From positions 1,120,001-1,184,000 of the forward strand of contig OY969807.1 in NCBI GenBank assembly GCA_963703285.1: a stretch of 64,000 nt of DNA, written 5' to 3'. Positions 5,332 to 35,203 of this stretch are shown here, piece after piece. The translations under genes and the position numbers were made by a program. Origin of the DNA: an uncultured Nitrososphaerota archaeon (GTDB taxonomy: Archaea > Thermoproteota > Nitrososphaeria > Nitrososphaerales > Gagatemarchaeaceae). Positions within the stretch are counted from its first letter, which is position 1. Each line of letters starts with the position of its first letter. The notes under the pieces were generated by a model. It saw only the letters and a program-made list of their open reading frames with translations. It was not told where the DNA came from and made no database searches.

Positions 5332-7005
5332 ATGGCTCAGATTGCAGACATCTCCCTAGAGGTAAGGAAGGAGGTCGCAAAGGGCAAGTTCATCCGGCAG
5401 ACCCAGTCGATATGCCCGGACTGCAACAGGATACTCCCGGCGATTGTCTTCGAGCGCGAAGGCAAGGTCTTCATGACCAAGACCTGCCCGCAGCACGGCG
5501 AGACCGAGGAGCTCTATTTCGGCTCCTACGAGATGTACGCCAAGTTCTCACGCTTCTGGAAGGACGGGAAGGGCACGCACGCGGCCAACGTCCCCATGGA
5601 CGTCTGCTCGTGCCCCGCGAACTGCGGGCTGTGCTCCAACCACCTCTCGCACACGGGTCTCTCGAACATCATCGTGACGAACCGCTGCGACCTAACCTGC
5701 TGGTACTGCTTCTTCTACGTCAAGAAGGGGCTCGAGGGCGCCTACGTCTACGAGCCGACGCTGCCGCAGATTCGCGAGATGGCCCGGACGCTCAAGGCCG
5801 AGAGGCCGGTCCCCGGCAACTCCGTCCAGATAACGGGCGGCGAGCCGACGATACGCGACGACCTGCCCGAGATAATCCAGATTATGAAGGAGGAGGGCGT
5901 AGACCACATCCAGCTCAACACCAACGGGATCAACCTGGCGCTCGACCCCGGGATGGCCCAGAGGCTGAAGGTCGCCGGAGTCTCGAACCTCTACATGTCC
6001 TTCGACGGCACCAGCCCCAAGACGAACCCGAAGAACCACTGGGAGGCGCCCTACGCCATAGAGGCCTGCAAGAGGGCGGGCATCGGCGTCGTCCTCGTCC
6101 CGACGGTCATCAAGTCCATCAACGACCACGAGCTCGGGTCCATCATCGAGTTCGGCCACAGGAACCTCGGCACCGTTCACGCCGTCAACTTCCAGCCCGT
6201 GTCGCTGACCGGGCGCATGACCGCCAAGGAGCGAGCAAAGTACCGCATCACGATACCCGACTGCATCAAGAGGATTGAGGAGCAGACGAACGGAGAGATT
6301 ACCTCGGAGGGCTGGTTCCCCGTCCCGTCGTGCTCGCCGCTGACCTCGTTCATCGAGGCGTTCACCAAGAAGGAGCAGTACGAGCTCTCGATACACTTCG
6401 CATGCGGCGCGGGGACCTACGTCTTCGAGGACGCGGAGACCAAGAAGCTGGTGCCGCTGACGAACTTCGTCGACATCCAGGGGCTCGTCGAGTACCTGGA
6501 GGAGAAGACGGAGGAGATTTACTCGGGGACGAACAGGTACGTGGTCGCCGCGAGGGTCCTCACCCAGATAAACAGGTTCGTCAACAGGGAGAAGCAGCCC
6601 AAGGGGATGTCGTTCGGGAAGATGATAACCAACGCGCTCATCAGGCACGACTACGCCGCCATAGGGGACTTCCACACAAAGTCGATGTTCCTCGGAATGA
6701 TGCATTTTCAGGATAAATACAATCAAGATGAGGAGAGACTTCAGCGCTGCGACATCCACTATCTGACTCCGGACCTGAGGATAATACCATTTTGCTCATT
6801 TAATGTCATACCTGAGTGGTACCGCGACCGCATCCAGCAGAAGTACGGCATGCCGATCGAGGCCTGGGAGAAGAAGGTCGGTCGCAAGCTCGAGGACGGA
6901 CTCTACCGTGGCACCCTTCGCAGAGGCGGCCACGTCGCAGGATGCGGATGCGCGCTCGGCGAGAACGGCGAAGAGATCCACATCCAACCGATAACCGGAA
7001 CCTAA
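5332..7005 (+). CDS. tes: radical SAM tetraether lipid synthase (Tes/GDGT-MAS, MJ0619-like)
   Basis: N-terminal SICPDC..KTCPQHG, CSCPANCGLC..H cluster, radical SAM RCDLTCWYC, TGGEPT, C-terminal RCDIHY..IIPFC. Confidence 0.85.
   Translation: MAQIADISLEVRKEVAKGKFIRQTQSICPDCNRILPAIVFEREGKVFMTKTCPQHGETEELYFGSYEMYAKFSRFWKDGKGTHAANVPMDVCSCPANCGLCSNHLSHTGLSNIIVTNRCDLTCWYCFFYVKKGLEGAYVYEPTLPQIREMARTLKAERPVPGNSVQITGGEPTIRDDLPEIIQIMKEEGVDHIQLNTNGINLALDPGMAQRLKVAGVSNLYMSFDGTSPKTNPKNHWEAPYAIEACKRAGIGVVLVPTVIKSINDHELGSIIEFGHRNLGTVHAVNFQPVSLTGRMTAKERAKYRITIPDCIKRIEEQTNGEITSEGWFPVPSCSPLTSFIEAFTKKEQYELSIHFACGAGTYVFEDAETKKLVPLTNFVDIQGLVEYLEEKTEEIYSGTNRYVVAARVLTQINRFVNREKQPKGMSFGKMITNALIRHDYAAIGDFHTKSMFLGMMHFQDKYNQDEERLQRCDIHYLTPDLRIIPFCSFNVIPEWYRDRIQQKYGMPIEAWEKKVGRKLEDGLYRGTLRRGGHVAGCGCALGENGEEIHIQPITGT
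6907..7005 (+). repeat. tes 3'-end repeat, master copy (RGTLRRGGHVAGCGCALGENGEEIHIQPITGT*)
   Basis: segment recurring at several downstream sites. Confidence 0.9.
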
Positions 7006-7099
7006 CGAAAGAGAGCCATAGGATCCGGGCTTTCCATTTCCTTTCCTGTGGCCCCTGTCTCCTTGCTTTGAAGCCGATTTAAGTAAAATTTATGACGGT

Positions 7100-8446
7100 T
7101 TGGGCCCATCTACTGCGGGTCAATGGCCGATGGCCCGTCCAAAATTAGGTCAAAGCACGAGTGACAGGGTGTCAAGAACCGGCTCAATCGATTCGGTGGC
7201 TAGCAAGATACTCTCACAGTGCGAAGTCTTCTTCTTCGAGAGCCATGAACCGGGTAGAAATGCATCCAAGCTTCTTGATTCCACTACGGAGACGTTACTT
7301 CAATACGACGCCTTGAAGGACGAACTCTTACCTTATGACGTAAGCGAAACCCTTCGTAGTGCCCTTCTCACGATTCCCATTACTCATCGCCAAAACGCGA
7401 GAGCCCGCCTGAGAAGACTAATCTCAAGCAATTTGCTAGATGCTAAGGTTTTCGATATCTATTATGCCTTGAATCAAGTCTCGGGCTTTCCTAACCATTT
7501 TAAATTGGGCCATGGAGAGTTGCTCGCCTTTGATTCAGTCCCATCTTACGTCAGAAACAGAATGATACGGGCATGGAAAGGTGAATCGTTGGGCCATGGG
7601 CTGAACGCCAAGAGTTCTTCCGAATTCGTACAGTCGGGGAAGGAACATAACTGCCTGCACTTGACTGTCGCTCGTCGAGGGTTCGCTCGGGCCATAGCAG
7701 AGGCCAACAGAAAGGCCTACGAGTCGGTCAATCTCCTCCGGGTTGTTTACGGACAGGATGTCCCCTTGTTCACGCTAGTTCACGTAAGAAGGGGAAGTCA
7801 CTGGGACATAGGCGCTCTCTCCTACGGAGGCGGCGCCGTGAGGGATCGAAATATGTTCCCGGTAATCCAATACACGACCTGGCCATCTCTTCCTCATGGT
7901 ACGAGGAGAAAGCCATTGGAGACGCGGTATGGCCCTCACCATCTACTTGATATCCAGTACTCCGAGTCACTTGGTAGCATACTGTCCCGGTATAGAAGGC
8001 TGATGCTAAATGAGCATCCATCTGAGCTCGAAAGTAAGCTGAGAAACGCTCTTCTTCTCATTGGGTTCACGTGGGAGGTCGACCTTGATCAAGTCAAGTT
8101 CATCCTACTGATCACGGCTCTTGAAGCTCTGCTTCTGGAAGACTCAGGACAGGGGAACCTTCAACTGAGGCTTGCTGAACGGGTCGCGTTTCTTATTGGC
8201 GAATCTCCTGCAAGACGAGTGCAACTATATGACGAGATGAAGAGGTTCTATGGTCAACGCTCGCGATTTGTGCATCAAGGTGATTTTGAGGATAATGTGG
8301 ATGCTGATATCGCTGAACTCTTCGAAATAGCCAAAAGAGTTTGGGTCCGAGTTGAAGAACTCACAAAAGACGGCTTCGTTCAGCTTAGAAAGGACAAGCA
8401 GAAGAGATCTTTGGATGGTCTAGTTGAAAGGCTGAAATTCACATAA
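7100..8446 (+). CDS. ApeA-like HEPN domain protein
   Basis: LITALEALL..LAERVAFL..YGQRSRFVHQG (RxxxxH); lower GC than host genes; ATG 7130 alternative start. Confidence 0.8.
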   Translation: MGPSTAGQWPMARPKLGQSTSDRVSRTGSIDSVASKILSQCEVFFFESHEPGRNASKLLDSTTETLLQYDALKDELLPYDVSETLRSALLTIPITHRQNARARLRRLISSNLLDAKVFDIYYALNQVSGFPNHFKLGHGELLAFDSVPSYVRNRMIRAWKGESLGHGLNAKSSSEFVQSGKEHNCLHLTVARRGFARAIAEANRKAYESVNLLRVVYGQDVPLFTLVHVRRGSHWDIGALSYGGGAVRDRNMFPVIQYTTWPSLPHGTRRKPLETRYGPHHLLDIQYSESLGSILSRYRRLMLNEHPSELESKLRNALLLIGFTWEVDLDQVKFILLITALEALLLEDSGQGNLQLRLAERVAFLIGESPARRVQLYDEMKRFYGQRSRFVHQGDFEDNVDADIAELFEIAKRVWVRVEELTKDGFVQLRKDKQKRSLDGLVERLKFT

Positions 8447-8476
8447 TGCAGTTTTTGAGAAATCCATTCACAGTAC

Positions 8477-8536
8477 GGCTTTGTTCTGGGCTAGAACGGC
8501 GAAGAGTTCCAAATCCAGCCGATGACAGGTACTTGA
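8477..8536 (+). repeat. degenerate tes 3'-end copy
   Basis: translates GFVLG*NGEEFQIQPMTGT* vs tes GCALGENGEEIHIQPITGT*. Confidence 0.85.
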
Positions 8537-8790
8537 ACTGATAGTAGAAAGCTCAACGCTTTCTATCCTCCACTTTCATCTTCAACCCACTGTTTACTTG
8601 TCGTTACGCTCTGATGCGGGATTATCCAGATGAATGTAGGCAATTCAATTCCGATGGTGTTAGGAGGCATGATAATTGGAACAAATCTGTATCATCCTAG
8701 GCTACAGAACGAGGTCTTCGGGTCATTGAAAGCTCGCGAAGGATATGAGATTCCCACTGTCAAGGTCGGCATTAGTACCGAAATTCAGCT

Positions 8791-10630
8791 TCATGACCAA
8801 ACAGCGCGGCTCACAGCCAAATCTCCAAGGATCTCTTCACGTTGCCTAATTGCCTCTTCACCAAATTCATTCAACTCGTCTCCCTCGAATGTCGCGTTAT
8901 TGACAGGAAGATTCATGGACAAATATCTTTCACGTTTTTGTTGGTATGGAAGAATTCCGAGTTCACTGTTCTCATCTTGTGAAAGAATTGTGAAATTTCC
9001 GAGCCGATCGACGAAATCCCCATGTTTCATATGCTTCGAAACGAGATACGCGTTCCAATCTGCATCAGGGTTTTGAGGAATCACATGTTCCAGGGTTATC
9101 TCCTTTCCCCACACTCTGTGAAGCGGGGTTGTTTCCATCTGGTCATTGATCATCGTTATGAGGTACTTGACCACTCGGCCCTTCCTATCCTTCATCTCGA
9201 CGAACGCTCTCTTGAGTTCTGCATCATCATGAGGCGTGACTTCCCTGATATGTCCGATGGCTGTTGGAAGGTCAAGACTCCCTGAACGGACCTCCAAGGC
9301 CCAAATACTGTACATCTCTTCCAATTCGTTCGGATTCCCTTCTAGTATTGTATACGCCTTGACACAGAGATTTCGATACGCCTCTAGCAACGATTCGATT
9401 CCACGCAAGTTCCCTGAGAATCGGATATACGCAGCTAGGAATAGAGGCAATGCTTGCCTAAAGCCCAAGTACTCGAGCTCACTAATGAGGTGAGAAATGC
9501 CACTGTGATTCGTCCACTCCGGAGAGGTAGGATCTCTTAGTGCAAAATAGGCTCTAGCTTCATTGGTCATCTTCTGCATGAATGTTTCGAAGGCGGGTGC
9601 AGTCTTTCCACCGATCTCGTTCTTAATCGCGGAACAACTTCTTCTTTCTAACAAACTCATAGTTTGAAAGCCAGAATTGACGCAGAAAATCATCAATATC
9701 ATCCCCTGCTATTTGAGAGAAGCCACTCCATATGTCCTCCATTCTAGGTTGGCCGAGGTCGTGCTCGAAAGTATCAAAGATGAAGTTCTTGAAGAGATCA
9801 CTAACCAAGAGTTTTGTCCCTCGTTGGTTGAGAGTCTCGAAGATCTCATACATGATTCCGATATCGGGAACCTTGTTGTCAAGAACATAGAATCCCGCAG
9901 AAAGCGATGTGTGAAGATCACGCAAATACGACTCGCTTACATCGTTCGATAAGGATGACAAGGCTGCGCGTAGCTGATCTTGATTGTTACCTGTGAGGCG
10001 TGTATTATTGATTCGTGCAATATCCTGGACTAATCTCAGATGATAGAACCGGTAGCAACCAACGATGGCTGAGTTGCTTTTTCCTTCCCCCTTCTCCTCA
10101 CGCAGGGTTGAGATCTTCGAAAGAGAATCCCCCTGGGCACCGCCAGCCGCGCGCAAAGTCAACACCCTGTCAAATAGCACCGAACTATCTTTTCCCAATT
10201 TAACACGAGAAGTGCTCAGACCTCCCGCAGTTTGAAGGAGTGAATCGTGAATTCTTCCTAGCACGTTAGCTCCTTCCGCCGAGATGTTGTAGATGGCTCG
10301 CTTGTAGTCAAGCAAGTCATAAATGACAATTTCGACAATAGCGAGGGTCGCCAATCGTTGCTGTCCGTCGAGGATTCGTAGAGTCCTAGCTTCCCCATTT
10401 GGCAAGAAAAACATCGGGCCGAGAAAATGGAAATTATCATGTGAATCGCGGTCCCCCCTCTGCCGTGCCCTTAACAGATCTTGCAGATCTTCCCAGAGGT
10501 CAAGCCAATTATCACTGTCCCAAGAATATCCTCGTTGATTGACGGGAACGACGAAACGATTATTGCGAAACAACTCCCCAATTTGGACTGGTTTCGAGGA
10601 AGGCAGTACATAGTTCTCAAAATCACTCAT
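8791..10630 (-). pseudogene. GmrSD-type DUF262 + DUF1524 (HNH) nuclease, split by a frameshift near 9628
   Basis: QRGYSW, ILDGQQRL, FETLNQRG (DUF262); LEHVIPQ..RLGNFTIL..N (DUF1524); two overlapping ORFs. Confidence 0.8.
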
Positions 10631-10749
10631 AAATCGATATTTGTTGGTAATGATACATATGGCTTTTGCCCGTATCATACGTTCTTGCAAATTGACTTAG
10701 CTTTGGGTATTCCACCTCGAAGCCCAGACAGAATCTTATATAGTCAAAG

Positions 10750-11691
10750 GTGAAACAAGAGCCAGAGAAATTGAATGTTCCTGAGCTAGAAATTGCCGGT
10801 CTTCCTCAGGCAATTGAAAGAAGGTCTGCATTCCCGTTCATCAAATGGGCGGGAGGAAAGGGCCATCTTCTCAGCGAGATTATGCGCTATGTCCCGAGGG
10901 ATTTCTCAGGAGATTACTATGAACCATTCCTGGGGGGTGGGGCAGTGTTCTTCGCGTTGTACCGAACAGGCCACAGTTTCAAGGCTTATCTCTCGGACAC
11001 GAATGAAGAACTAATAAATTGCTATGAAATGGTCAAGAATAGACCAGCCGACCTGCTCGTGCTGCTGAAGATCTTGCAGCAGCAATTTCATGATGCGACA
11101 AACAAAGAAGTCTACTTCTACAATGTAAGAAGTCTGACTCCGACAAGCGGTCTCCAGGCCGCTGCAAGATTCATCTTCCTGAATAAGACATGCTATAACG
11201 GTCTATATCGCGTGAACAAGAAGGGAGTATTCAACGTTCCTTTTGGCGGGTATAGGAAACCCAATATCGTCAACGAAAGCAAGCTTTTCTCAGGAAGCAA
11301 GGCTCTGAACGAATCCAAGTCGAAGTTGAGCGTCTTGGACTACAAGAAATCGATTGATCGATGTCAATCCGGCGATTTGGTTTACCTCGATCCTCCATAT
11401 CACCCAACAAGCAAGACTGCGGCATTCACTGACTACACTACTCAAGGATTCACAGAGCTGGATCAAAGAAACCTTCGGGATTCGTTCGTTTCACTGGCAG
11501 AGCGTGGGTGCAAGGTTGTTCTCACCAATTCCGATACTGGATTAGTAAGAACCCTCTATGATGATTTCCGTAGGAAGCGACTCTTGGTTTCCCGTCCAAT
11601 AAGCTGCAAAGGTTCAGGGCGAAAGGGATTCCACGAGTTACTGGTTTCAAATGTTCCTAGAATAGACACCCAGATCAGTGATTTTGTATGA
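10750..11691 (+). CDS. Dam-family (D12 class) DNA adenine methyltransferase
   Basis: KWAGGK, YYEPFLGGG, NGLYRVN..G.FNVPFG, YLDPPY. Confidence 0.92.
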   Translation: MKQEPEKLNVPELEIAGLPQAIERRSAFPFIKWAGGKGHLLSEIMRYVPRDFSGDYYEPFLGGGAVFFALYRTGHSFKAYLSDTNEELINCYEMVKNRPADLLVLLKILQQQFHDATNKEVYFYNVRSLTPTSGLQAAARFIFLNKTCYNGLYRVNKKGVFNVPFGGYRKPNIVNESKLFSGSKALNESKSKLSVLDYKKSIDRCQSGDLVYLDPPYHPTSKTAAFTDYTTQGFTELDQRNLRDSFVSLAERGCKVVLTNSDTGLVRTLYDDFRRKRLLVSRPISCKGSGRKGFHELLVSNVPRIDTQISDFV

Positions 11692-12227
11692 GTTCTTTGT
11701 TGATCATCCTGTCGCAACGCGAAAGAATCCCGAAAGTTCCGCAGGCGAACGAGATTAATCGAATCATTGAGTTAGTCGAGAAAGTGGGTGAAGGTGCTCA
11801 TGATGCCAAGACAATTGGTAAGAGAATGAGTTTTGATCCTCGACAGAGTTCTTACTACCGCGAGGCAGCCGAAATGCTGGGATTTCTTAATCAGCGGAAG
11901 CACTATTCCCTAACTGAGTTGGGAAAACAACTCATGGTGGCCGATCCAACAGCCCGAACACGCATTCTCTTCCTTTCCTTGCTGCGCTTTCCGGTAACCG
12001 GGATAATAGTTGAGAGTCTGGAGGCGGGGCTGCAGGAGTGGATTACTAAGGACGAAATCGAAGTGTATATGGCGAAAGTCAGCAAGCTAGATCCAGATAC
12101 TGTCAAGCGGCGGACGCAAACAATCCTCGCATGGCTGAAATGGCTGGCGAAGAACGGCGGAATCATCGAAGTTTCGAATGATGTAGTAAGGCTATCGTCT
12201 CAATATCGTTTGACGAACTTTGATTGA
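11688..12227 (+). CDS. winged-helix protein of the type associated with restriction systems
   Basis: FDPRQSSYYREAAEMLG..LTELG and TVKRRTQTILAW; overlaps the MTase stop. Confidence 0.6.
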   Translation: MSSLLIILSQRERIPKVPQANEINRIIELVEKVGEGAHDAKTIGKRMSFDPRQSSYYREAAEMLGFLNQRKHYSLTELGKQLMVADPTARTRILFLSLLRFPVTGIIVESLEAGLQEWITKDEIEVYMAKVSKLDPDTVKRRTQTILAWLKWLAKNGGIIEVSNDVVRLSSQYRLTNFD

Positions 12228-12308
12228 CAGAGAATCTCTGTCCGATTAATGGCATATCGACCAGTTCCCTAGAAGTATAAAGAGAGCCTAGAATTCGATT
12301 TCCGCGAA

Positions 12309-14447: not shown

Positions 14448-14451
14448 AACC

Positions 14452-14631: not shown

Positions 14632-14634
14632 AAG

Positions 14635-17039: not shown

Positions 17040-17092
17040 GCGATCTGGGCTAACTCTTCCCTGAGAACTTAGGAGATAAGAGAGAGGGAATG

Positions 17093-22638: not shown

Positions 22639-22668
22639 TGAGTTTCCTGCGCATGATTTTCCATATAT

Positions 22669-25169: not shown

Positions 25170-25299
25170 CTGTTATCAGTAGTCCAAGGAAAGAACCAAG
25201 AAGAATCCGAGCTCAAGCTTCAAGGCCCGGTCTCTCAAAAGATAGCCAGGCAGTCGATCGAATGAAACCAGCTCTAAGCTTGGGAAATCAACTCTCTAC

Positions 25300-26432: not shown

Positions 26433-27506
26433 TCAAGGGACCACCCTTCTCATCGTGTGGCTGGACGATATCTCATCGTGCTGTTCGGGTGCGGTGTTGT
26501 CGAATTGGAACCCTTCATTCTTGTACAACGCGAGTGCTGGCTCGTTTCCATCTCGAACAATCAAGATACACTCTTTTGCCGACTTGCTCTTGAAATATTC
26601 CTGAATTATTTCCAAGAGCCTCTTTCCTATTCCGAGTCTTCTGTAGGGAGAATCTACTGCAATCGAATCTACCTCTCCAATGCCACGTTCGTCGATGTAT
26701 CCGATTGTGTATCCAACGACCTTGCCCAGTATTTCGGCAACGAAAAACCCGTCCTTATGGTCTCTAAAGTACTCGAGGAATTTCTCTCTTGAATACGCAT
26801 CAGCCGCTAGGAAGGAACTCACCTCGACCTCAGTAACGCGGTCGATTTGCGCCGATTCAACAGGGCCGTACCGGACTTGTAGTTCTTCCATCAGGAAGCG
26901 CTTGAGGTTCGCTTGACTCGTCTCCCGCTGGATTTCTGCAAACCCCTCCTTTTTCGAGACCTGAGCGGACGCGATTTCGTTTAGGTGTTGGAACTCACCA
27001 TAGTATTCTTGACTTCCTCTCTCTGTTCTGTAAGCTTGGATATAGTCCTGCAGGACTTCCCAATACGGAATTATCCAGTAGCTCGGGATGGACCAAACAG
27101 CATACTGGCGGACTAGGCCGCTTCGCAGCATCAATCCGAAGTCCTCAAAGTAGTCCAATAATTCGTCCGCGTATTCTTCGTATAGCTTGAAATGGCCCTT
27201 GTAAAGCAGCAAGTTACGGGCCAAATTGCTTCTGACCTGGCGATACTCCGTCGAATCGAATTTGTCCATCTCTCTACGAAGAAGTTCGTATGCCGAGACT
27301 TTCGATGTCTGCTTGATCTGTATGTAAAGGTAGTAGACGTAAGCAACGGTAAAGATCGCAACGAGCGCTTCCCAGAAGATAGGAGATGTGAGCACGCTAG
27401 GCAGAACAGTTGAAAAACTGGCAGACGAACTTGCGGAGCTTAACGAGCTGGAAGCCCCCTCGTTCGCTAGGGCAATCCATTCGTTAACAATCTGGAACAC
27501 GTTCAC
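26433..27506 (-). CDS. TM/DUF4760-like domain fused to a RimI-type GNAT acetyltransferase
   Basis: TM helix, LLDYFEDFGLMLRSGLV; SIAVDSPYRRLGIGKRLL, N.PALALY..EGF. Confidence 0.75.
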   Translation of the reverse strand: MNVFQIVNEWIALANEGASSSLSSASSSASFSTVLPSVLTSPIFWEALVAIFTVAYVYYLYIQIKQTSKVSAYELLRREMDKFDSTEYRQVRSNLARNLLLYKGHFKLYEEYADELLDYFEDFGLMLRSGLVRQYAVWSIPSYWIIPYWEVLQDYIQAYRTERGSQEYYGEFQHLNEIASAQVSKKEGFAEIQRETSQANLKRFLMEELQVRYGPVESAQIDRVTEVEVSSFLAADAYSREKFLEYFRDHKDGFFVAEILGKVVGYTIGYIDERGIGEVDSIAVDSPYRRLGIGKRLLEIIQEYFKSKSAKECILIVRDGNEPALALYKNEGFQFDNTAPEQHDEISSSHTMRRVVP

Positions 27507-27692
27507 AGATAGGTGCTGATGTCTTTTAAGTCAGACGCTGCTGAGGAAGTTGGTGTGGGCGTCGGTCGCCAGAGGCGAAGGCCCGGAGAGTAAGCTCCTA
27601 AACTACCGCTTCCTGCCTCTCTACTTGAGAAAGGCCAAGGGGCGATACAATTAACTTGATCGGAAGGGAACCTGGAAGAGAGGGATAAACCC

Positions 27693-28631
27693 ATGATGTC
27701 AGAGAGCCAGTATCGCCCCCTAGGTGCCTCACGAATAATGGTCTCTCCCCTCGGCACCGGGACCAACAGGTGGGCCCAAGGAAAGAACGACGAGGCCGTT
27801 TTCCAGACCTTTCGATCCCTTGTTGATGCCGGGGTGAACTTCTTTGACACGGCTGAGGTCTACAGCATGGGAAAATCCGAGCGCCTCCTGGGCGCCTGTC
27901 TCCAGCGGGACCCCCGACCGGTGGTGATCGCCAGCAAGTTTGCGCCGTACCCCACACGCCTCTTCCGCCGTCAGTTCATGCGCGCCCTGGACGCCAGCCT
28001 GATGCGTCTGGGCAGGCAGACGGTCGACCTGTACTACATCCACTTCCCCAATACTCTGCTAAGCATCGAAACCCTGATGGACCTGATGGCGAAAGCAGTC
28101 GCGGCGGGCAAGGTCCGTGCGGTGGGCGTAAGCAACTTCAGCGCCGAGCAGATGCGCAGGGCCGCGACCCGCCTCGAGCGGTACGGCATCCCTCTGGCCG
28201 CGAACCAGGTTAGGTACAACCTGCTACATCGCCAGCCGGAAGAGGATGGTGTTCTGGCTGCCTGTCGGGAACTCAACGTCGCCCTTGTGGCCTATCGTCC
28301 GCTGGAGAGGGGACGACTCAGGTCGGACATCATCCCAGGAGCGGCGTCCGATTCGCTCTCCGCGGTAAGTAACAAGGGCAAGGCAGTTGCAAAAGAAGAG
28401 GCTATCCAAGAGACGCTCCACGCGATTGCGGAGCAGCGCGGAAAGAGCGTCAGTCAGGTCGCCCTGAACTGGCTCCTGCGCAGAGACGAACACGTGATAC
28501 CCATTCCGGGCACCACAAATGCGCGTCACGCGCTAGAGATTGTCGATACTCTCAAATGGCAACTCAGCGAGGACGAGTTTGCAGCCATCGACCATGTTTC
28601 CTCGCCGGCCCCGGGCATCTCGGCCTCCTGA
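27693..28631 (+). CDS. aldo/keto reductase
   Basis: FDTAEVY, SLMRL..VDLYYIH, AVGVSNF, IPIPG. Confidence 0.92.
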   Translation: MMSESQYRPLGASRIMVSPLGTGTNRWAQGKNDEAVFQTFRSLVDAGVNFFDTAEVYSMGKSERLLGACLQRDPRPVVIASKFAPYPTRLFRRQFMRALDASLMRLGRQTVDLYYIHFPNTLLSIETLMDLMAKAVAAGKVRAVGVSNFSAEQMRRAATRLERYGIPLAANQVRYNLLHRQPEEDGVLAACRELNVALVAYRPLERGRLRSDIIPGAASDSLSAVSNKGKAVAKEEAIQETLHAIAEQRGKSVSQVALNWLLRRDEHVIPIPGTTNARHALEIVDTLKWQLSEDEFAAIDHVSSPAPGISAS

Positions 28632-28634
28632 AAA

Positions 28635-28723
28635 GGCACCCGCGGCGCGGCGGCCACGTAGCCGGCTGCTGCTTCGCTCTGGGCGAGGACGGCGAAGAGG
28701 TCCACATCCAGCGGATCACTTGA
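28635..28723 (+). repeat. degenerate tes 3'-end copy
   Basis: GT..RGGHVAGCCFALGEDGEEVHIQRIT*; begins 4 bp after the AKR stop. Confidence 0.92.
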
Positions 28724-28777
28724 TGGTGCCCCTAGACACTGACGAAATTCATATATGCGAGATGCGATAGTTACGAA

Positions 28778-29479
28778 GTGATGGGCCTGGGCAGCGGTAA
28801 CAACGCGGTTCTCGTCAGCGGTTGTAAGAGTCTGCAGAACCTGACTGTGGACCTGTGGGTAACGGAGGACTTGGTCACGCTCGGGAACAACGGATTCTCG
28901 CTCCAATTGAACTGCTATCCGCAGACCAACCCCCAATCTACCCATGAGGGCACGCCGCTGAATTGGATTCAGTACGTCATCGCGGTAGTAAACGACTCGC
29001 TGGAGTGGGGGATCCAGTACTGGTCCCAGCCAAAGGGTTTCGGTTACAGCCCTAGTCCAAATTACGTCTCATTCGGCTCTGCCCCATCGAACCAAGTGCT
29101 CGCAGGCTCGGTGATGAGGATAGCGCTCATCACTGATTCCGGTGACAATGTGACACATGCGACATTCAGCGTTACCGATCCCAAGGGCAAAGTTTCCAGC
29201 CACACGTTCGCGTTCCCGTCTAACGCCTTGTCTGCGATCTATGGCTTCCAGGTCGATCTCGTAGGACCGCCCAGCGGCACCCACAGCTGCAACTTCACGT
29301 CGGGAGCGGGGACCCTGACCTACGCGGTGGGTCCCTCAGGGACGCTTGCGGTACAGACCACCAACACGTGCGGCGGCAGTCAGCCCGGCACGGCCGAGAC
29401 GTCCAATTCCAAGTACGGCACTGTCAATACAGTCGTCATTATAGTTCTAACCATACTGATTCAATCCGTATCAGTCTAA
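28778..29479 (+). CDS. hypothetical beta-rich protein
   Basis: long ORF rich in Ser/Thr/Gly, GFSLQLNCYP. Confidence 0.55.
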   Translation: MMGLGSGNNAVLVSGCKSLQNLTVDLWVTEDLVTLGNNGFSLQLNCYPQTNPQSTHEGTPLNWIQYVIAVVNDSLEWGIQYWSQPKGFGYSPSPNYVSFGSAPSNQVLAGSVMRIALITDSGDNVTHATFSVTDPKGKVSSHTFAFPSNALSAIYGFQVDLVGPPSGTHSCNFTSGAGTLTYAVGPSGTLAVQTTNTCGGSQPGTAETSNSKYGTVNTVVIIVLTILIQSVSV

Positions 29480-29849
29480 TCCCAGCCCAGAGGCTGAACG
29501 ACACCCGCGCGCCATCCACGAATCAAAATTACACAAAGCGTGTTCTATGCGCGATACCGTCAAGATAAGAGAGTGATTATGGCTAGGAGGACGCCCTTCG
29601 CATTCATTTGATGCTCCTCTTTCCTTTGTCCGTCAGCATCCACTGATTCTGCCTTCCGACCCTTTTGCCCTTGACAAGACCCTCTGAGACTAATTCGTAC
29701 AAATGAAGCTGGGCCGTGTTCCAGCTCTAAGGGATCGCCTTGGCACTCATCTCCGTCTCTATTGGCCAGGCTTCCGTCAGCAAGTAGGCGACTACCTATC
29801 GAATTTGTAAGCTCATTTTCTGTGGTTCTGTTTCGGTAAAGGAGGAAAA

Positions 29850-29930
29850 GGCACACACTTGGCATGATGTGATTGTGCTCTCGGCGAGAACGCCGAGGAA
29901 ATCCATATCAAAGCGATGGCTGGCACTTGA
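29850..29930 (+). repeat. degenerate tes 3'-end copy
   Basis: GTHLA*CDCALGENAEEIHIKAMAGT*. Confidence 0.9.
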
Positions 29931-29945
29931 GCCCGGGCGTGGCTA

Positions 29946-30380
29946 TTGCGGCCTAAGGTTCAGGTAGTTTTCGACTCCAAGGATCCCGAGCGTTTAGCTT
30001 CCTTCTATGCCAGGGCCCTAGGCTACAAGCTGCAGGAGCCACCCAAGCCCTACGCGTCCTGGGACGAAGCTCAGAAGGACTGGGGCATCCCCGAAGAAGA
30101 CTGGCACGACTGGGCGGCGATAGTCGACCCCGACGGGACGGGCCCTCGCATCTACTTCCAGAAGATGGACACCCTGAAGACCGCAAAGAACCGGCTCCAC
30201 ATCGACGTGAACGCGAGCGAAGGGCACACCGCCTCTCCCGAGAAGCGCAAGGAGCAGGTCGGGGCCAGGGTGGACTACCTGAAGTCGCTCGGCGCGAGCC
30301 GACAGGGCGAATTCGACGAGAACGGTGACTACTGGGTCGTCATGCTCGACCCCGAAGGCAACGAGTTCTGCGTCCAATAG
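29946..30380 (+). CDS. VOC/glyoxalase family protein
   Basis: DPERLASFY, KNRLHID, WVVMLDPEGNEFCV. Confidence 0.9.
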   Translation: MRPKVQVVFDSKDPERLASFYARALGYKLQEPPKPYASWDEAQKDWGIPEEDWHDWAAIVDPDGTGPRIYFQKMDTLKTAKNRLHIDVNASEGHTASPEKRKEQVGARVDYLKSLGASRQGEFDENGDYWVVMLDPEGNEFCVQ

Positions 30381-30408
30381 GTCTGGCCCGCGTTGCCGTC
30401 TGCGAATC

Positions 30409-30468
30409 GGCTGCGGGCTTCCCTAGAACGGCGAAGAGATACACATCCAGCCCATCACCGGGAGCTAG
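30409..30468 (+). repeat. degenerate tes 3'-end copy
   Basis: GCGLP*NGEEIHIQPITGS*. Confidence 0.9.
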
Positions 30469-30782
30469 GCTGCAACATATTCCGCTGACAAATTCTGCTG
30501 ATCCCCGCTGATCGTCTTCTCACGAACTAACTTTTACAGACCTTGAGGGCCGCGCGCTTTGCGGGAGTCAGGGGCCGTCTGGATGGCTATCTTGCCCCCT
30601 CAAGACCGGCCCTTGCCTGAACACTCGATGTGAGCGTAAAGGGATTACGGCGGTTGTTCCTTACCCCGTCGGGAAGCCAGACAGCGGAGGCTTCTGTGGT
30701 GGAGGAACTGGCTTCGTTCGGGAGATACGTCGAAGGGTTGCCTCGCTCGGGAAGTTCCAAGCTTAATTATCAGGGGCACGCA

Positions 30783-31886
30783 GTGATTCTGTTGAACCCC
30801 AAGTCAAGAAGAGCGGGCACAAAGTCGTCGGTCGCCGGCCTCCACGAGGAGGTGGCGAGGAAGGTGATTTCTGATTCCCTTCACCTGAAGAAGGGAGAGT
30901 CGGTGACGGTCGAGACCTGGAACAACGGGTTGCCGATGGCCCTTAGGTTTGTGGGCGAGGCGAGAAAAACCGGGGCCATCCCGCTCATGCTGTTCGAGGA
31001 CGAAGACACCTATGTCTTCGGCGTGAAGAACGCTCCGAAGGAAGGCCGCGGGAAGATGGGAAAGCACGAGCACGGACTCCTCGCAGCCTCGGACGCGTAC
31101 TTCTTCATCCCCAATGAGCTCCTCGAAGGATACACGAGGAGGATTACTCCGGACGAGGTCGAAGAGGCGACGGCCTACGGCGACTCGTGGTACGAGGCTG
31201 CTCAGAAGGCCGGGCTCAGGGGGGCGAGGATGAGCTTCGGCTTCGCGGGGAAGGAGCTCGCGAGGCTGCTGGGCAAGTCCCTCGAGGAGATAGAGGTCCA
31301 TCAGCTCAAGGCTGCACTAGTCGACTTTGGCTCGATCAGAAGGGCAGGGAACGGGCTGGCATCGCGTCTCCCGGACAGCGGTTCCGGCTCCCTCACCTCA
31401 CCCGGTGGTTCGCACCTGAGGTTCGAGTTTGAGCGTGGCGTGCACCTCGAGGACGGCATCGTCGATGCGAAGGACGTCGCAACGGGGCACAACATGACCT
31501 ACCTCCCACCCGGGTTTCTCAGGAAGAGCATCAGGCCGGAGTCGGTGAGCGGAAGTGTGAAGCTTTCGCCTTCGATTGGCTGGACCGGAATCATCGGTGA
31601 CGCGACGCTGGACTTTGAGAAGGGACGACTCGTCGGGTGGAAAAGCATTTCATCGAAGCGCATGCTGGACGAGGCCATCGAGGACCAGGTCGAGAGCGAA
31701 AGGATGGTCAACGCGTTGACCATCGGGCTCAACCCGCTGATGCGCTACGGCTACGGTCAGGACAGGTTTGTGGCCGGTTCCATAGGCGTCGCGGGATTGT
31801 CCTTCACTGGCATCGTGAGGAGCGGCACGCTCCGGGCGGGCCACTCGGTCGTCGTGAATAAAGGGCGACTGGCTCTTCCCTCCTAG
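30783..31886 (+). CDS. M29 aminopeptidase-like protein, metal ligands apparently missing
   Basis: SLHLKKGESV N-terminus, LDFEKGR, IGLNP; TATA-like box ~30763. Confidence 0.65.
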   Translation: MILLNPKSRRAGTKSSVAGLHEEVARKVISDSLHLKKGESVTVETWNNGLPMALRFVGEARKTGAIPLMLFEDEDTYVFGVKNAPKEGRGKMGKHEHGLLAASDAYFFIPNELLEGYTRRITPDEVEEATAYGDSWYEAAQKAGLRGARMSFGFAGKELARLLGKSLEEIEVHQLKAALVDFGSIRRAGNGLASRLPDSGSGSLTSPGGSHLRFEFERGVHLEDGIVDAKDVATGHNMTYLPPGFLRKSIRPESVSGSVKLSPSIGWTGIIGDATLDFEKGRLVGWKSISSKRMLDEAIEDQVESERMVNALTIGLNPLMRYGYGQDRFVAGSIGVAGLSFTGIVRSGTLRAGHSVVVNKGRLALPS

Positions 31887-31951
31887 CTCTGCGCTTCATG
31901 CTGAAGCAGGGCGCACCCTCATTTTTTACCGGCCCAAGAACATTGCAAGGC

Positions 31952-32160
31952 ATGCCCCCGGAGGACGGGGCCCGGATTGAGGCCAAATTGAGGAAAATCG
32001 AAGCGACCATCGCACACTTGCAGAGCGGGAGCAACAGCTTCTCGAGGTGATATCTGCACTTACGAAATCGACGATCTCCGAATCGCCTGCGTAGCTGCAA
32101 CAGCCCGAATTCAGTGAGAGGGCCCTGGACAGAACCTCATCCGCATCGGCGGCTTCGGGA
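31952..32160 (+). pseudogene. decayed paralog of 39098..39508
   Basis: MPPEDGARIEAKLRKIEATIAHLQ, frameshift, ESPA*LQQPEFSERALD, internal deletion, LIRIGGF. Confidence 0.8.
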
Positions 32161-32236
32161 GGGCTGGCCCGGGAAATAACTTCACAGAAATACGACAAGC
32201 TGGGCGGCCCCATGAGAGCGAGGAATCGCCTGAACC

Positions 32237-32333
32237 AGGGGTAGCGCGGAGAGGCGACCACGTCGCGGGCTGTGGCTGCGCCCTCGGAGAGAACGGCGAG
32301 GAGATCCACATCCAGCCAATCGCCGGTACCCAG
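32237..32333 (+). repeat. best-preserved tes 3'-end copy
   Basis: RRGDHVAGCGCALGENGEEIHIQPIAGT(Q). Confidence 0.95.
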
Positions 32334-32418
32334 TTGGTTACTAGTCCGCCCCCGAGCTTGGCAGAGCGTTTTTGGTTCGAGGGGAATCACTCGCCTGCGT
32401 GAGGTCGGAGGAGCCCTT

Positions 32419-33285
32419 TCACGAGCTGAAGAGCAACGGAATAATCCTAAGGTCACCGCGGCGGAGGAAGATCCTATCCAGCTCCTGGTTCTCTTCGTCG
32501 GTGAGCCTCCAGTCCGTCGAGCCGAGGTTCTCCTCAACGTGCGCCGCGTGGGATGCCCTCGGAATCGGGAAGACGTTCCCCTGCGAGAGCAGCCAGTTGA
32601 GAGCCACTTGGGCGGCGGTCTTCCCGTGCCTCGCCCCGATCTCCCGGAGCTTCGGGTCAGAGACGAGCTTCCCATGGCCCATGGGGAAGTAAGCGAGGAG
32701 TGCGACGTTCTCGTTGCTGCAGAACGGGAGTATCTCCCTCTCCATCCTCCTGTCCGCGAGGTTGTACGGCATCTGGATCGAGGCGATGCTGTGCTTCTTC
32801 ATCGCGTCCTTCGCAGCGATGGTCTGCTTGAAGGAGAAGTTCGAGATCCCGATGGAGCGCGTGAGGCCCCTGTCGACCATCTCCTCCAGGGCCCCCATGG
32901 TCTCCTTGATCGGCACGAACGGGCTGGGTTGGTGGACCTGGTAGAGGTCCACGTAGTCGAGCTCGAGCCTCTTCAGGCTCCTTTCGAGGGCCCTGACCAG
33001 CGCGTCGTGCCGCAGGTGGAGGAACATTACCTTCGTGGCGATGAAGAGGCCCTCCCTCTTTCGCCCGGATATGGCCTTCGCTACGAGCGGTTCGGAGTTG
33101 TAGACCTCGGCCGTGTCTATCAGCGTGATGCCTCCATCGAGACCCGCCTTGAGCGCCTCCACCTTTGATGACGCGCCTCCCCTGCTCCCGAGTCTGGCCT
33201 TGATGATCCAGGGGAAGTCGTAGTAGGTGCCCATCCCTATGGCGCTCACCTGCCTGCCTGTCGGGCCGAAGGGCTTGAGTTCCAT
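32419..33285 (-). CDS. aldo/keto reductase
   Basis: IDTAEVY, IATK, SLKRL..VDLYQVH, IGISNF. Confidence 0.92.
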   Translation of the reverse strand: MELKPFGPTGRQVSAIGMGTYYDFPWIIKARLGSRGGASSKVEALKAGLDGGITLIDTAEVYNSEPLVAKAISGRKREGLFIATKVMFLHLRHDALVRALERSLKRLELDYVDLYQVHQPSPFVPIKETMGALEEMVDRGLTRSIGISNFSFKQTIAAKDAMKKHSIASIQMPYNLADRRMEREILPFCSNENVALLAYFPMGHGKLVSDPKLREIGARHGKTAAQVALNWLLSQGNVFPIPRASHAAHVEENLGSTDWRLTDEENQELDRIFLRRGDLRIIPLLFSS

Positions 33286-33440
33286 CTTGATGGATGCGGT
33301 TTTCCCGGTCCTTAAATCGGCTCTGGTTGCTCGACTTCGGAGACCTGGTAAGAGTTCCAGCCATTCATCCTCCACTTCGTCGGCCGCTCTTCGAGCCGTC
33401 GTAGCGCCTCGGGATTTCAGCCCGAGGTTCGTCGCAGCCT

Positions 33441-33505
33441 ACGGGCTACCAGCGGCCGTGATCCAGTAGTGCGGCGAAGAGATCTTGCTTAGTTGACGCC
33501 GTACT
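33441..33505 (+). repeat. possible highly degenerate tes 3'-end copy
   Basis: exact GGCGAAGAGATC core at 33473 with weak flanking similarity; intergenic. Confidence 0.35.
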
Positions 33506-33549
33506 CGCCTGTTTTGCAAGTCTTATAAGTAAGTGGGAATCGTTGTGGG

Positions 33550-33801
33550 ATGGGAACGGTTATGGGAGAGGCAGTGATCGACGGGAGAGGCAGAATAGTC
33601 ATACCTAATGAGATAAGGGAAGAACTCAAGTTGAGACCCGAGCAAAAGCTGAGAATATCGACGAAGGGGAAGGAGCTCGTGCTCTCGCCAGAGATTGAAG
33701 CGGACGAATTCATCTCCCAACTGAAGGGGTGCGTCCATGGTTCGGGAATCAAGCCAGAGGATCTAAAGACCATCTGGGGTGTCGACCATGCTCATCATTG
33801 A
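33550..33801 (+). CDS. AbrB/MazE-type antitoxin
   Basis: IDGRGRIVIPNEIREEL. Confidence 0.88.
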   Translation: MGTVMGEAVIDGRGRIVIPNEIREELKLRPEQKLRISTKGKELVLSPEIEADEFISQLKGCVHGSGIKPEDLKTIWGVDHAHH

Positions 33802-34213
33802 CACGAACATCTGGGCCTACTATTTCGACAGGGACTCACCGGAGCACGGATCCGTCGTCGCACCCGTTGAGGAGGCCCTCAGGTCAGAGCAGATAGCCAT
33901 CAACACGATAGTAATCATGGAGTTGGCGCATTTTCTCGTCAAGAACCTCGGCCCTGTTGATGGCGGCGAAAAGCTCGGGGTGTTCCTTCGTTTTCCCTTG
34001 GCCATATCCGAATTCGACTACAGGACCGCTCTCGATTCTGTGGAGATGCTCAAGAGATATTCCCACCTGGGCGTGGGCGGCAGGGATGCGACAATACTCG
34101 CCCTGATGGACAGGGCCAAGGTGAAGAAGATCATGACTCATGACGCAGCTCTGAAAAGAGTTGACTGGTTGGAAGCCACGGACCCGGTCATAAAGCCGAG
34201 AGAAAGTGAATAG
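33788..34213 (+). CDS. vapC: PIN-domain VapC toxin
   Basis: IIDTNIW, E, RDATILA, MTHD acidic PIN residues; overlaps antitoxin. Confidence 0.88.
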   Translation: MLIIDTNIWAYYFDRDSPEHGSVVAPVEEALRSEQIAINTIVIMELAHFLVKNLGPVDGGEKLGVFLRFPLAISEFDYRTALDSVEMLKRYSHLGVGGRDATILALMDRAKVKKIMTHDAALKRVDWLEATDPVIKPRESE

Positions 34214-34344
34214 AGAGGCCACCGAGGCCCGGTCCGTGCGCAGGTCGCACGGGGCAGAGCGGCCGGTAGGGCTGGGTCGTCACGTTCTACGGATAGCCGT
34301 GGGCCCTTGTCCCTTGCACCTGCCATAGGGCCGGGCTGACGCAA

Positions 34345-34599
34345 CTAGGTCATCTTCTTCGTCTCGTACATCTCGGCGTTGGGAAAGGACAGCTCAACCT
34401 TCGAGGTCGTATGAAAGAGGAAGCCCTTGTAGCTCGTGAGGTACTGCCAGGTGGGGCTGAAGCCGAGCTGTCCGGGTCTGCTGAAGACCACGACGGGATC
34501 CTGCATGCTACGAACGATACGATTGAATACGACAGAATCGACCGTGACCTTGTGCCCGAGGACGGCTTTCGCCCTCGCCGCATCTCCTCCGCTTTCCAA
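34345..34599 (-). CDS. hypothetical protein
   Basis: YLTSYKGFLF motif; upstream AT-rich box. Confidence 0.5.
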   Translation of the reverse strand: MESGGDAARAKAVLGHKVTVDSVVFNRIVRSMQDPVVVFSRPGQLGFSPTWQYLTSYKGFLFHTTSKVELSFPNAEMYETKKMT

Positions 34600-34642
34600 G
34601 CCGCCCCTTGAGGAGGCGCTGCCCCATTAATATCTTTGGAAG

Positions 34643-34724
34643 AGTGGCGACCTCGTCCCCGAATCCCGGAGGTCAGGAGAGCACGACAGCCAAAGTCCGC
34701 CGCAAGCGGATCGCAGGCACCTAG
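34643..34724 (+). repeat. highly degenerate tes 3'-end copy
   Basis: AGT GGC GAC CTC GTC..GGA GAG CAC GAC..CGG ATC GCA GGC ACC TAG (SGDLV..GEHD..RIAGT*). Confidence 0.55.
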
Positions 34725-34813
34725 AACCTGAAGGTGGGAGAGTTCACACTGTCTCCCTGACCTGAATCACCTCAACCGCCTTCCCTCCGCCACCTTTACA
34801 AAGCCGCGGACCA

Positions 34814-35140
34814 GTGTCAGGAAGGCGTCCCTTGTCTGAAATCGAGACCTTCTTTCGGCACTGCCCCGCCTGCGGAAGGCGGTTTGAAGTAAGACTGGTG
34901 GGCAAGAAGGTGGTCAGCGACGAGGAACACGAGTCCGAAGCGCCAGTGGAGGTTCCTACCGCCTTGCGCTCGACGCCCGCACTCTTTCTCCCCGTCACGC
35001 TGGATGAGGAAGTGCCGACCCTCGTCAACAGGGACGAGTTCCAGTACTCATACGTCTGCAAGCACTGCGGTCACCGCTGGTTGGAACTCCGCACCAAGAC
35101 GAACGAGATGAATAGACCCAAGGGCTACGAGGGTGACTAA
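34814..35140 (+). CDS. Zn-ribbon protein
   Basis: CPAC..YVCKHCGHRW. Confidence 0.7.
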   Translation: MSGRRPLSEIETFFRHCPACGRRFEVRLVGKKVVSDEEHESEAPVEVPTALRSTPALFLPVTLDEEVPTLVNRDEFQYSYVCKHCGHRWLELRTKTNEMNRPKGYEGD

Positions 35141-35155
35141 CTCGGCGGTCCTTAA

Positions 35156-35203
35156 GGCCGTGAGTGCGCCCTCGGCGAGAACGGCGAAGAGCTCCACAGT
35201 TGA
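35156..35203 (+). repeat. degenerate tes 3'-end copy
   Basis: GRECALGENGEELHS*. Confidence 0.88.

Follow-up and report, generated by a model that had tools for sequence, protein, structure and literature searches.

In a 64,000-nucleotide (nt) stretch of the genome of an uncultured Nitrososphaerota archaeon of the family Gagatemarchaeaceae (contig OY969807.1, positions 1,120,001 to 1,184,000; this whole stretch is called the window below), the 3' end of tes, the gene for tetraether lipid synthase, anchors an array of small gene units. The array is built from displaced ends of functional tes genes, its units are mobile between arrays, and no integrases are encoded in cis. As to the mechanism, we give a probability of about one half to a cassette array that is anchored by homology at the tes 3' end and possibly stimulated by DNA breaks, and that would work in the manner of an integron without using an integrase.

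The tes gene and its displaced 3' ends

The tes product belongs to the NCBIfam Tes equivalog family NF045702 (691.9 bits, where 450 is the cut-off; amino acids (aa) 23-508 of 557 are covered by the model) and contains the Pfam domains Radical_SAM and Zn_ribbon_HMPTM. The repeated segment corresponds to the terminal ~55-290 nt of the gene. Repeat finding in the window yielded one family of seven 84-nt members, namely tes and six copies. An nhmmer profile of the tes 3' end detects these six copies at E values from 1.6e-5 to 1e-17 and identifies them as the terminal 55-95 nt of tes. All of them lie on the + strand and no more than 28 kb downstream of the gene. When aligned to tes, their right ends fall at about the stop codon, and the two longest begin at shared tes codons (tes positions ~6908 and ~6918). 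Both features had been noticed in the original prediction, which was made from the letters of the window, as had the nonsense changes, which are indeed present: the copies at 8475 and 30388 carry GAG>TAG, and that at 28633 carries GGA>TGA. The same prediction had counted eight copies. Six of these are real, while the two decayed ones, placed at 33441 and 34643, find no support, since neither matches a profile of 187 displaced copies even at E <= 50. Near 33441 there is solely a 13-nt exact match to the core (~33467-33483), which could be due to chance, and at 34643 nothing is recognisable. Two other candidate decayed copies, a repeat-family member at 3819 and a blastn match at 60720 (E 0.006), were rejected because the 187-copy profile did not reproduce them.

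The host genome is a single contig of 2,252,123 bases. A sensitive blastn search of the entire genome with positions 6800-7045 returned the six copies alone at E <= 1e-6, the next best match having an E value of 0.006, and the 187-copy profile returned tes and the six copies alone at E <= 1e-5. This search of the genome with its own tes end, a check that had been proposed beforehand, places the copies solely downstream of tes. Since they are confined to the vicinity of tes and to one strand, a genome-wide repeat, be it a repetitive extragenic palindrome (REP) or a miniature inverted-repeat transposable element (MITE), is ruled out.

The arms in the window are 73-94% identical to tes, and there is no gradient, i.e., identity to tes does not drop with distance from the gene. 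Mismatches to tes at codon positions 1, 2 and 3 amount to 17/135, 15/136 and 62/140, a strong third-position excess that bears out the synonymous bias claimed for the copies. The window's own tes end shows no jump in divergence when compared with the tes loci L001, L002 and L003; differences are spread roughly evenly, at 6-19 mismatches per 100 nt.

Repeat anatomy and origin from functional alleles

In a wider set of loci, the profile gave 213 matches, which comprise 196 displaced copies and the true tes genes. Right ends are fixed: 180 of the 213 matches end in profile columns 301-310, which is 1-10 nt beyond the stop codon. Left ends are variable, with 127 matches starting in columns 201-270; at the protein level they cluster near aa 462-466, 504-510 and 528-540, and their edges are ragged within ~20 nt. 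A block of ~30 nt (columns ~255-284) is nearly invariant within each sub-lineage.

The type of divergence is informative about the origin of the copies. When 56 copies from 26 loci were compared with the tes gene of their own locus, mismatches reached 7.8%, 7.6% and 32.9% at codon positions 1, 2 and 3, respectively. Moreover, the displaced copies have the same column conservation as tes itself, including a dip at every third position. Because of this third-position bias and codon-periodic conservation, the arms must have diverged as parts of working tes genes, and the view that the copies are displaced ends of functional tes alleles is upheld. A duplication in place followed by decay is therefore disfavoured.

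Distribution of the arrays in the lineage

A Tes protein search provided 80 tes loci from species genomes, each of which was compared with its own tes end. The titles of the closest loci refer to Nitrososphaerota from peat and soil, including Candidatus Gagatemarchaeum. Displaced copies occur downstream of tes in seven of the 80 loci (L002-L007 and L018), with a maximum of seven copies in 7.2 kb in L007. The other tes loci examined had no downstream displaced copies, five of them having only weak matches (E >= 4e-4) that lie upstream or antisense. The core pattern, with up to two mismatches allowed, occurs at least twice in 13 of the 23 genomes of the genus and in none of the 74 genomes from the other nine genera of the family, the pattern being tuned to this genus. 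L018 has two copies and is apparently identical to G008, a genome of another genus, as judged from identical contig coordinates. On the same grounds, G001, G002, G003, G004 and G005 were equated with G032, G021, G037, G038 and G008, respectively. The array of G001 extends over at least 40 kb.

A scan of metagenomes with a 23-nt core, which led to contigs of soil or peat, found 103 matching stretches, 80 of which underlie all metagenome counts given here. Of these loci, 79 have a copy at E <= 1e-3; at least two copies are present in 58, at least three in 19 and at least five in seven. The largest arrays contain 12 copies in 14.5 kb (L165) and 11 copies in 10 kb (L131). Within the metagenome arrays, 187 of 189 copies agree in strand. 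The tes-anchored array is thus a lineage-wide system and not an oddity of the window. Two exceptional copies were seen in genomes: an inverted one inside the G001 array (oriented 23694-23740), and an orphan 32.6 kb upstream of tes in G003 (C7 ~76345-76456).

Gene order downstream of tes is not common to relatives, as a proposed comparison of relatives brought out, and the tes 3' end is a recurrent insertion hotspot, as had been supposed. A unit that directly adjoins tes in L107 is separated from it by two extra units in G001, L006 differs from L005 by one extra unit of 1.44 kb against the tes stop, and extra units also abut the tes stop in L111 and L133 when compared with L136. Throughout, tes stays intact, again in line with the original prediction.

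Units as shuffled cassettes

Measured from stop to stop, 135 units have a median length of 835 nt, and 127 of them do not exceed 3 kb. The longest open reading frame (ORF) of these 127 units lies on the + strand in 62 cases and on the - strand in 65, i.e., without bias, though this is a rough measure given the spurious antisense ORFs of GC-rich DNA. A Pfam scan of 81 non-redundant unit ORFs found 56 families. The 25 families listed include HicA (3), PIN (3), HicB and Fic, together with glyoxalases, a reductase, AhpC and hydrolases; no recombinase is among these 25.

Several comparisons reveal units that have changed company. A reductase segment of the window (32453-33397) is 94% identical to a unit of G001 that also lies behind a displaced copy, while the tes genes are 88.5% identical and the neighbours differ. 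L090 and L151 have three blocks in common, in different order. L098 and L130, which stem from different metagenome projects, are circular permutations of one sequence of 1,534 nt that contains two tes-end copies and a HicA/HicB pair, the two contigs having exact terminal repeats of 123 and 34 nt; the sequence could represent either a circular two-unit molecule or a tandem duplicate. Since units move between arrays both singly and in blocks, the original estimate of at least six independent insertions cannot be established.

Junctions were studied in pairs of copies for which one flank, but only one, is common at >=93% identity. In both informative pairs with a shared downstream flank, the sequences switch from divergent to near-identical at about column 254. 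Among the pairs with a shared upstream flank, three of four distinct ones diverge from about column 284 on and one only after the stop. The exchange junctions thus map to columns ~255-284, within the shared tes core: of only six distinct informative pairs, five are compatible with a crossover in this interval and one places it at or beyond column 297. In L105 versus L101, 83 nt of homology further left went unused. These junctions would fit an exchange inside the invariant block, and they appear compatible both with a fixed crossover and with homologous exchange resolving in the longest identical tract.

A replacement of the end of tes itself is seen in one pair of tes genes. The tes genes of L003 and L107 differ by 10 mismatches from -900 to -300 and by 32 in the last 300 nt. 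The jump in divergence, from ~1.7% to 10.7%, has its onset at -295, where the arms of the long class have their left edge. In comparison, 120 pairs of array-less relatives have a median ratio of 3' to 5' tes divergence of 1.22.

A free-standing LAGLIDADG homing endonuclease gene

Clustering of ORFs across loci revealed a protein of ~400 aa whose gene immediately follows tes in antisense orientation. Its matches to Pfam LAGLIDADG_3 score 33.2 bits in L004 (cut-off 22.5), 21 bits in L006 and 16 bits in L018, and the acidic residues of both motifs (G-D and S-D-G) are invariant in seven of seven sequences. A structure model (mean predicted local distance difference test score, pLDDT, 82.6) has its best Foldseek matches in PI-SceI and I-DmoI (template modelling (TM) score to target 0.61-0.68), PI-PfuI and also WhiA. 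A sequence search of solved structures with the endonuclease profile gave a mere chance match (E 0.39); it was the fold search that brought out the LAGLIDADG resemblance. The full-length gene of the relatives is thus predicted to encode a LAGLIDADG homing endonuclease with an intact fold and its catalytic acidic residues. The copy in the window is truncated; this remnant is 46.8% identical to the full-length L018 protein by tblastn and scores 144 bits against the family profile.

The gene is found downstream of tes in eight of the 80 genome loci, i.e., in four of the seven with arrays, in three of the 73 without, and in L005, a near-duplicate of an array locus. It is found at the same place in two of the 80 metagenome loci. 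Its presence at this one genomic position is sporadic among close relatives: the extra unit of L006 mentioned above is the endonuclease gene, which L005 lacks there while the flanks are otherwise collinear. In L018, the gene sits between tes and a displaced copy. The endonuclease gene is one of the array units in several relatives. In 18 of the 23 genus genomes its family has more than one copy, often with stop codons. A paralogue elsewhere in G000, the genome that contains the window (C1:61975-63150), was dismissed as independent support because there is no repeat array around it.

Two further observations concern endonucleases and their neighbours. NCBIfam holds a separate model for intein-containing Tes (NF045703), which makes tes a known host of selfish elements of the intein type; the endonuclease gene at the present loci is free-standing. 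A gene for a retropepsin-like aspartyl protease (gag-asp_proteas) occurs in 10 loci, among them the window (50690-51061), L004 (15440-15838) and G001 (12797-13186). It adjoins the LAGLIDADG gene in L004 and G001, and in the window it lies far from the LAGLIDADG remnant.

The search for recombinases

A hidden Markov model (HMM) built from 19 tyrosine recombinases of the family matched none of 5116 six-frame ORFs from ~0.57 Mb, which comprise the window, the genome arrays and the 80 metagenome loci. The absence of an integrase from the window, noted in the original prediction, thus holds both for Pfam on the scanned ORFs and for the integrase HMM over six-frame ORFs of at least 60 aa. In G000 there is a single PF00589 match. 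At a distance of 500 kb, it immediately follows a stretch whose translation resembles that of the 3' part of a tRNA gene, and by its position it looks like part of an ordinary tRNA-integrated element. This only tyrosine recombinase of the genome (C1:1627138-1628601) has ~410 aa and a C-terminal zinc ribbon. One small resolvase of G000 is located 430 kb away.

PF00589 was not detected in five of 22 other genomes of the genus (G022, G025, G027, G029 and G036). Two of these bear arrays, G027 with five core matches (82% complete) and G036 with three (77% complete), and in both no match to PF00239 was found either. On the scale of the family, no tyrosine recombinase was detected in 34 of 97 genomes, array-bearing ones included. 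A serine recombinase was discarded as the missing enzyme since PF00239 occurs in only three of the 23 genomes of the genus. Two core patterns had no match in 2.9 million viral contigs. Single-strand DNA folding was compared with that of shuffled sequences to look for attC-like structures; z-scores ranged from -0.65 to +0.66 for six of eight strands and were about -2 for both strands of one copy.

Proposed mechanism and alternatives

According to the mechanism that we favour, a unit would consist of cargo plus a portable tes end. The cargo is usually one gene, with examples being toxin-antitoxin pairs, glyoxalases, reductases or defence genes, and the arm would correspond to the last ~55, ~90, ~150 or ~290 nt of tes, through the stop codon and a few bases beyond. 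Units would enter by recombination between their tes arm and the resident tes 3' end, either by a single crossover of a circular unit or by copying from a donor array during break repair. The insertion would rebuild an intact tes whose end derives in part from the incomer. The former end would be displaced downstream and kept as the right-hand arm of the unit and, since it would remain a target for recombination, units could be gained beside tes, lost, reordered and traded between genomes. We infer that recombination depends on homology, uses the host machinery and resolves mostly in the ~30-nt invariant block. The stimulus could be double-strand breaks made by the free-standing LAGLIDADG endonuclease, whose gene lies against the tes stop in several relatives and which may thus act as a trigger. 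A homology-driven mechanism had been the fall-back of the original prediction; it fits the evidence best, and the LAGLIDADG gene, which that prediction had not noticed, adds the possible trigger. Whether one may speak of an undescribed archaeal gene-capture platform, integron-like in function and composed of a site at the 3' end of an essential gene of lipid synthesis, portable arms, host homologous recombination and an endonuclease cassette as the trigger, and operating without an integrase, is a proposition that we put forward tentatively and with more doubt than conviction.

A number of points weigh against this homology-based mechanism. Homologous recombination alone explains neither the first acquisition of a tes arm nor the existence of three to four classes of left ends. 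The junction data are few and would be equally expected from a site-specific recombinase crossing over in the invariant block. No recombination event was observed: public Logan contigs (four runs of one study) on positions 27500-36500 gave no joints or bridges, and as these contigs are short and of low depth they are uninformative on excision. The ORFs of the units lack an orientation bias, and metagenome contigs can be chimeric at repeats. The array of the window may be inactive, given its truncated endonuclease copy and the incomplete identity of its arms to tes. The endonuclease itself may be a passenger that exploits the same conserved site, since its gene is rare in arrays (two of 80 metagenome loci, and six of the 26 loci with a true tes) and adjoins tes in three array-less lineages (L009, L011 and L019). 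Its fold also resembles WhiA, a non-cleaving LAGLIDADG derivative, and both cleavage and target are predictions. Finally, the absence of recombinases is a weak argument, because the metagenome-assembled genomes are 54-88% complete and a recombinase of an unknown family would escape the searches.

The principal alternative to homologous exchange is a trans-acting, site-specific recombinase, possibly of an unrecognised family, whose gene would reside on transient elements or at another place in the genome. It would recombine the ~30-nt block, and the units would be non-autonomous cassettes, like those of clusters of attC sites lacking integron-integrases (CALINs) or cis-mobilisable elements. The small size of the units, their cargo types (toxin-antitoxins, glyoxalase, acetyltransferase-type) and their permuted order resemble integron cassettes, a single crossover site in columns 255-284 is consistent with the junctions, in which the leftward homology of L105 and L101 stays unused, and the circular permutations in L098 and L130 are what excised circles would give. 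Most archaeal integrons are likewise reported without intI on the contig (PMC9668308, as far as the available part of that text goes). However, the array loci encode no tyrosine recombinase, neither a tyrosine nor a serine recombinase was detected in G027 and G036, and the sole tyrosine recombinase of the complete genome adjoins a tRNA-like sequence, as expected for an ordinary integrated element. The sites are conserved in sequence rather than in structure, their folding equals that of shuffled sequences for six of eight strands, and they are not attC sites. In addition, the long tes-derived arms with their codon-type divergence left of the core would have no role, and at least one replacement of a tes end starts at -295, outside the core. 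On balance, we consider a trans-acting recombinase rather unlikely.

Less credit still is due to a serial integration of autonomous elements (proviruses, ICE-like (integrative and conjugative) or cryptic elements) that each brought a replacement tes end and subsequently lost their integrases and most other genes. The topology would be right, with the gene intact, old ends displaced and differences synonymous. Unit 2 of the window, with its 20 kb and its low GC, could be such an element, and integration at 3'-distal parts of protein genes with tandem re-use of the site is documented in Thaumarchaeota for 14 of 68 elements (PMC6563490, in the part of the text available). Against this stand the small size of nearly all units, the absence of any integrase or fragment of one from the 5116 ORFs, although decay should leave some, the recurrence of small units in different arrays and orders, unlike relics, and the lack of a match to the core in the viral contigs. 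The original prediction had started from such integrase-carrying elements, on the model of e14 and phage 21; with a median unit of 835 nt, no integrase in 5116 ORFs and none detected in G027 and G036, that picture is improbable. A local duplication of the target without foreign tes ends, as with CRISPR repeats, casposons or replication slippage, followed by decay of the displaced copy, would account for insertion polarised next to tes and for direct repeats, and tandem integration at a protein gene's 3' end is documented for thaumarchaeal casposons (PMC6563490, in the same part of the text). Neutral decay would, however, be even over codon positions, at odds with the third-position excess and the codon-periodic conservation described above, and a fixed staggered cut does not account for repeats of 55-290 nt whose left ends vary. 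No Cas1 or casposase is among the 25 of 56 cargo families listed, and no search aimed at them was made. We regard local duplication as extremely improbable.

Content of the window array

The six displaced copies divide the 28 kb downstream of tes into six units (Table 1). The unit 1 protein has no Pfam or NCBIfam family, and its neighbours in the protein atlas are unnamed, mainly bacterial clusters. It is possibly a HEPN/ApeA-like defence protein, the nearest named atlas neighbours being at 0.90, which serves as a lead only. A distant relative (26% identity) is encoded in L141. That it might be a hidden recombinase was rejected, as there is no family match and the nearest named neighbours are HEPN/ApeA-like.

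Unit 2 is composite. It carries a defence island with GmrSD split into N and C genes, a Dam methylase, a ResIII helicase, an SMC-like ATPase, CHAT and HNH, and further a DUF7226 gene, an RNaseH/PolB-exonuclease-like gene, a GNAT gene and an aldo/keto reductase gene; several of its ORFs, of 300-530 aa, match no Pfam or NCBIfam family. The ORF upstream of and overlapping the PIN-domain gene of unit 6 may form with it a candidate toxin-antitoxin pair, a reading from position, as the PIN gene alone was scanned. A direct repeat of 99 nt (31927-32025 and 39079-39177, 75% identity) has its second copy overlapping the start of a MerR-like ORF (39098-39508), and this sharing suggests that a paralogue fragment may form the end of unit 5.

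Genomic GC (guanine plus cytosine) content is 60.6% (standard deviation 3.8, 2-kb windows). The values of units 1 and 2 are lower, which suggests that the two tes-proximal units are the most foreign, while units 4-6 look native by GC.

Table 1. Coordinates of tes, its displaced ends and the array units in the window
Feature	Position	Strand	Basis or remark
tes, tetraether lipid synthase gene, 557 aa, anchor of the array	5332..7005	+	NCBIfam NF045702, Pfam
Core common to all copies: near-invariant GGCGARGARNTCCACATCCARCC, then final ~16 nt of tes and stop	6955..7005	+	Alignments, column conservation, exchange junctions
Displaced tes end 1	8475-8537	+	nhmmer profile of tes 3' end
Displaced tes end 2	28633-28723	+	nhmmer profile of tes 3' end
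Displaced tes end 3	29849-29933	+	nhmmer profile of tes 3' end
Displaced tes end 4	30388-30471	+	nhmmer profile of tes 3' end
Displaced tes end 5	32246-32336	+	nhmmer profile of tes 3' end
Displaced tes end 6	35155-35209	+	nhmmer profile of tes 3' end
Unit 1: ORF 7100-8446 (448 aa, no function assigned) and displaced end 8475-8537	7006..8537	+	GC 49.1%
Unit 2: composite, 20.2 kb, ends in displaced end 28633-28723	8538..28723	+	Pfam; GC 47.5-53.3%
LAGLIDADG homing endonuclease gene remnant in unit 2, C-terminal ~156 aa	17114..17581	-	tblastn, family profile
Second LAGLIDADG gene fragment, inverted	18568-18735	+	tblastn
Unit 3: ORF 28778-29479 (233 aa, no function assigned) and displaced end 29849-29933	28724..29933	+	
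Unit 4: glyoxalase-like gene 29946-30380 and displaced end 30388-30471	29934..30471	+	Pfam Glyoxalase_6, 4.9e-25
Unit 5: ORF 30630-31886 (418 aa, weak M29 peptidase match alone) and displaced end 32246-32336	30472..32336	+	
Unit 6, ends in displaced end 35155-35209	32337..35209	+	Pfam
Unit 6 aldo/keto reductase	32419-33375	-	Pfam
Unit 6 candidate antitoxin ORF	33550-33801		Inferred solely from overlap with PIN gene
Unit 6 PIN-domain gene	33779-34213		Pfam
Unit 6 Zn-ribbon ORF	34814-35140		

Relation to known systems

A similar topology is known from integrative elements that supply a protein gene with a new 3' end. In E. coli, e14 and phage 21 replace the 3' end of icd, and in Streptococcus thermophilus the elements ICESt1 and ICESt3 accrete at fda together with cis-mobilisable elements. 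As in the tes arrays, the target stays intact, the incoming end has mostly synonymous differences, old ends persist as direct repeats, and accretion is in tandem and includes integrase-less units. However, no integrase-bearing partner was found at tes, the tes units are ten to a hundred times smaller, and the arrays reach up to 12 repeats, with arm-length classes of up to 290 nt. Xer-exploiting elements (IMEX) stack at dif. They too are integrase-less elements placed in tandem at one chromosomal site by host machinery, whereas the tes site lies inside coding sequence and a tyrosine recombinase went undetected in the 34 family genomes mentioned above.

In Thaumarchaeota, integrated elements are described that use 3'-distal parts of protein genes and stack in tandem, but they do so with integrases or casposases (PMC6563490). 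The available part of that text does not name tes among the targets, some of which it gives only as 'conserved hypothetical proteins'. Similarly, the part of the Gagatemarchaeaceae genome paper at hand (PMC10640624) has no mention of tetraether, integrase, cassette or genomic island, and a literature search found no work that links tetraether synthase with a homing endonuclease, integration or a genomic island. With the reservation that attaches to the unnamed targets in the accessible text of PMC6563490, these searches agree with the earlier remark that no described system is known to use tes in this way.

Integrons and CALINs share with the tes arrays small, mostly one-gene units behind a fixed entry point, a cargo rich in toxin-antitoxins and small detoxifying enzymes, units that are reordered between genomes, and a majority of arrays without an integrase on the contig. 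They differ in several respects. The structured attC site is replaced at tes by a piece of a protein gene that is conserved in sequence, and units enter at the end of a housekeeping gene, which has to be rebuilt at each insertion. No IntI was found near the tes arrays, and none is detectable in some array-bearing genomes. Finally, the ORFs of integron cassettes are mostly co-oriented, in contrast to those of the tes arrays, which have no orientation bias. The archaeal integrons described so far have attC sites, and in most cases their contig lacks intI (PMC9668308); the portion of this text available contains neither Thaumarchaeota nor Nitrososphaer-.

The intronless homing of T-even phages, with its seg and mob genes, resembles the tes loci in that a free-standing endonuclease gene lies beside a conserved gene and is sporadic among relatives (PMC2790892, PMC13096335, to the extent that these texts were available). 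The one of these two papers that dates from 2026 deals, in its accessible part, with segmental amplification driven by an endonuclease. In both situations, break repair would co-convert the end of the adjacent gene. Here, in contrast to the phage case, the setting is a cellular archaeal chromosome, the endonuclease belongs to the LAGLIDADG family, its cleavage is a prediction, and its gene is one unit among many unrelated ones. To our knowledge, homing has not been described to leave repeated displaced gene ends behind.

Implications

If the proposed mechanism is true, Gagatemarchaeum-like Thaumarchaeota of acid soil and peat would have a dedicated site at which small accessory genes are collected, shuffled and traded. 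An integron-like outcome would then have been reached by a different route, with a cassette platform made from the end of a housekeeping gene and homology and without a specialised recombinase, and a connection would emerge between homing endonucleases and the formation of genomic islands in cellular genomes. Repeated replacement would make the end of Tes a mosaic, which would matter for the use of tes as a phylogenetic or lipid-biomarker gene. In practical terms, the tes-end core would provide a sequence handle for recovering the flexible gene pool of this uncultured lineage from metagenomes.

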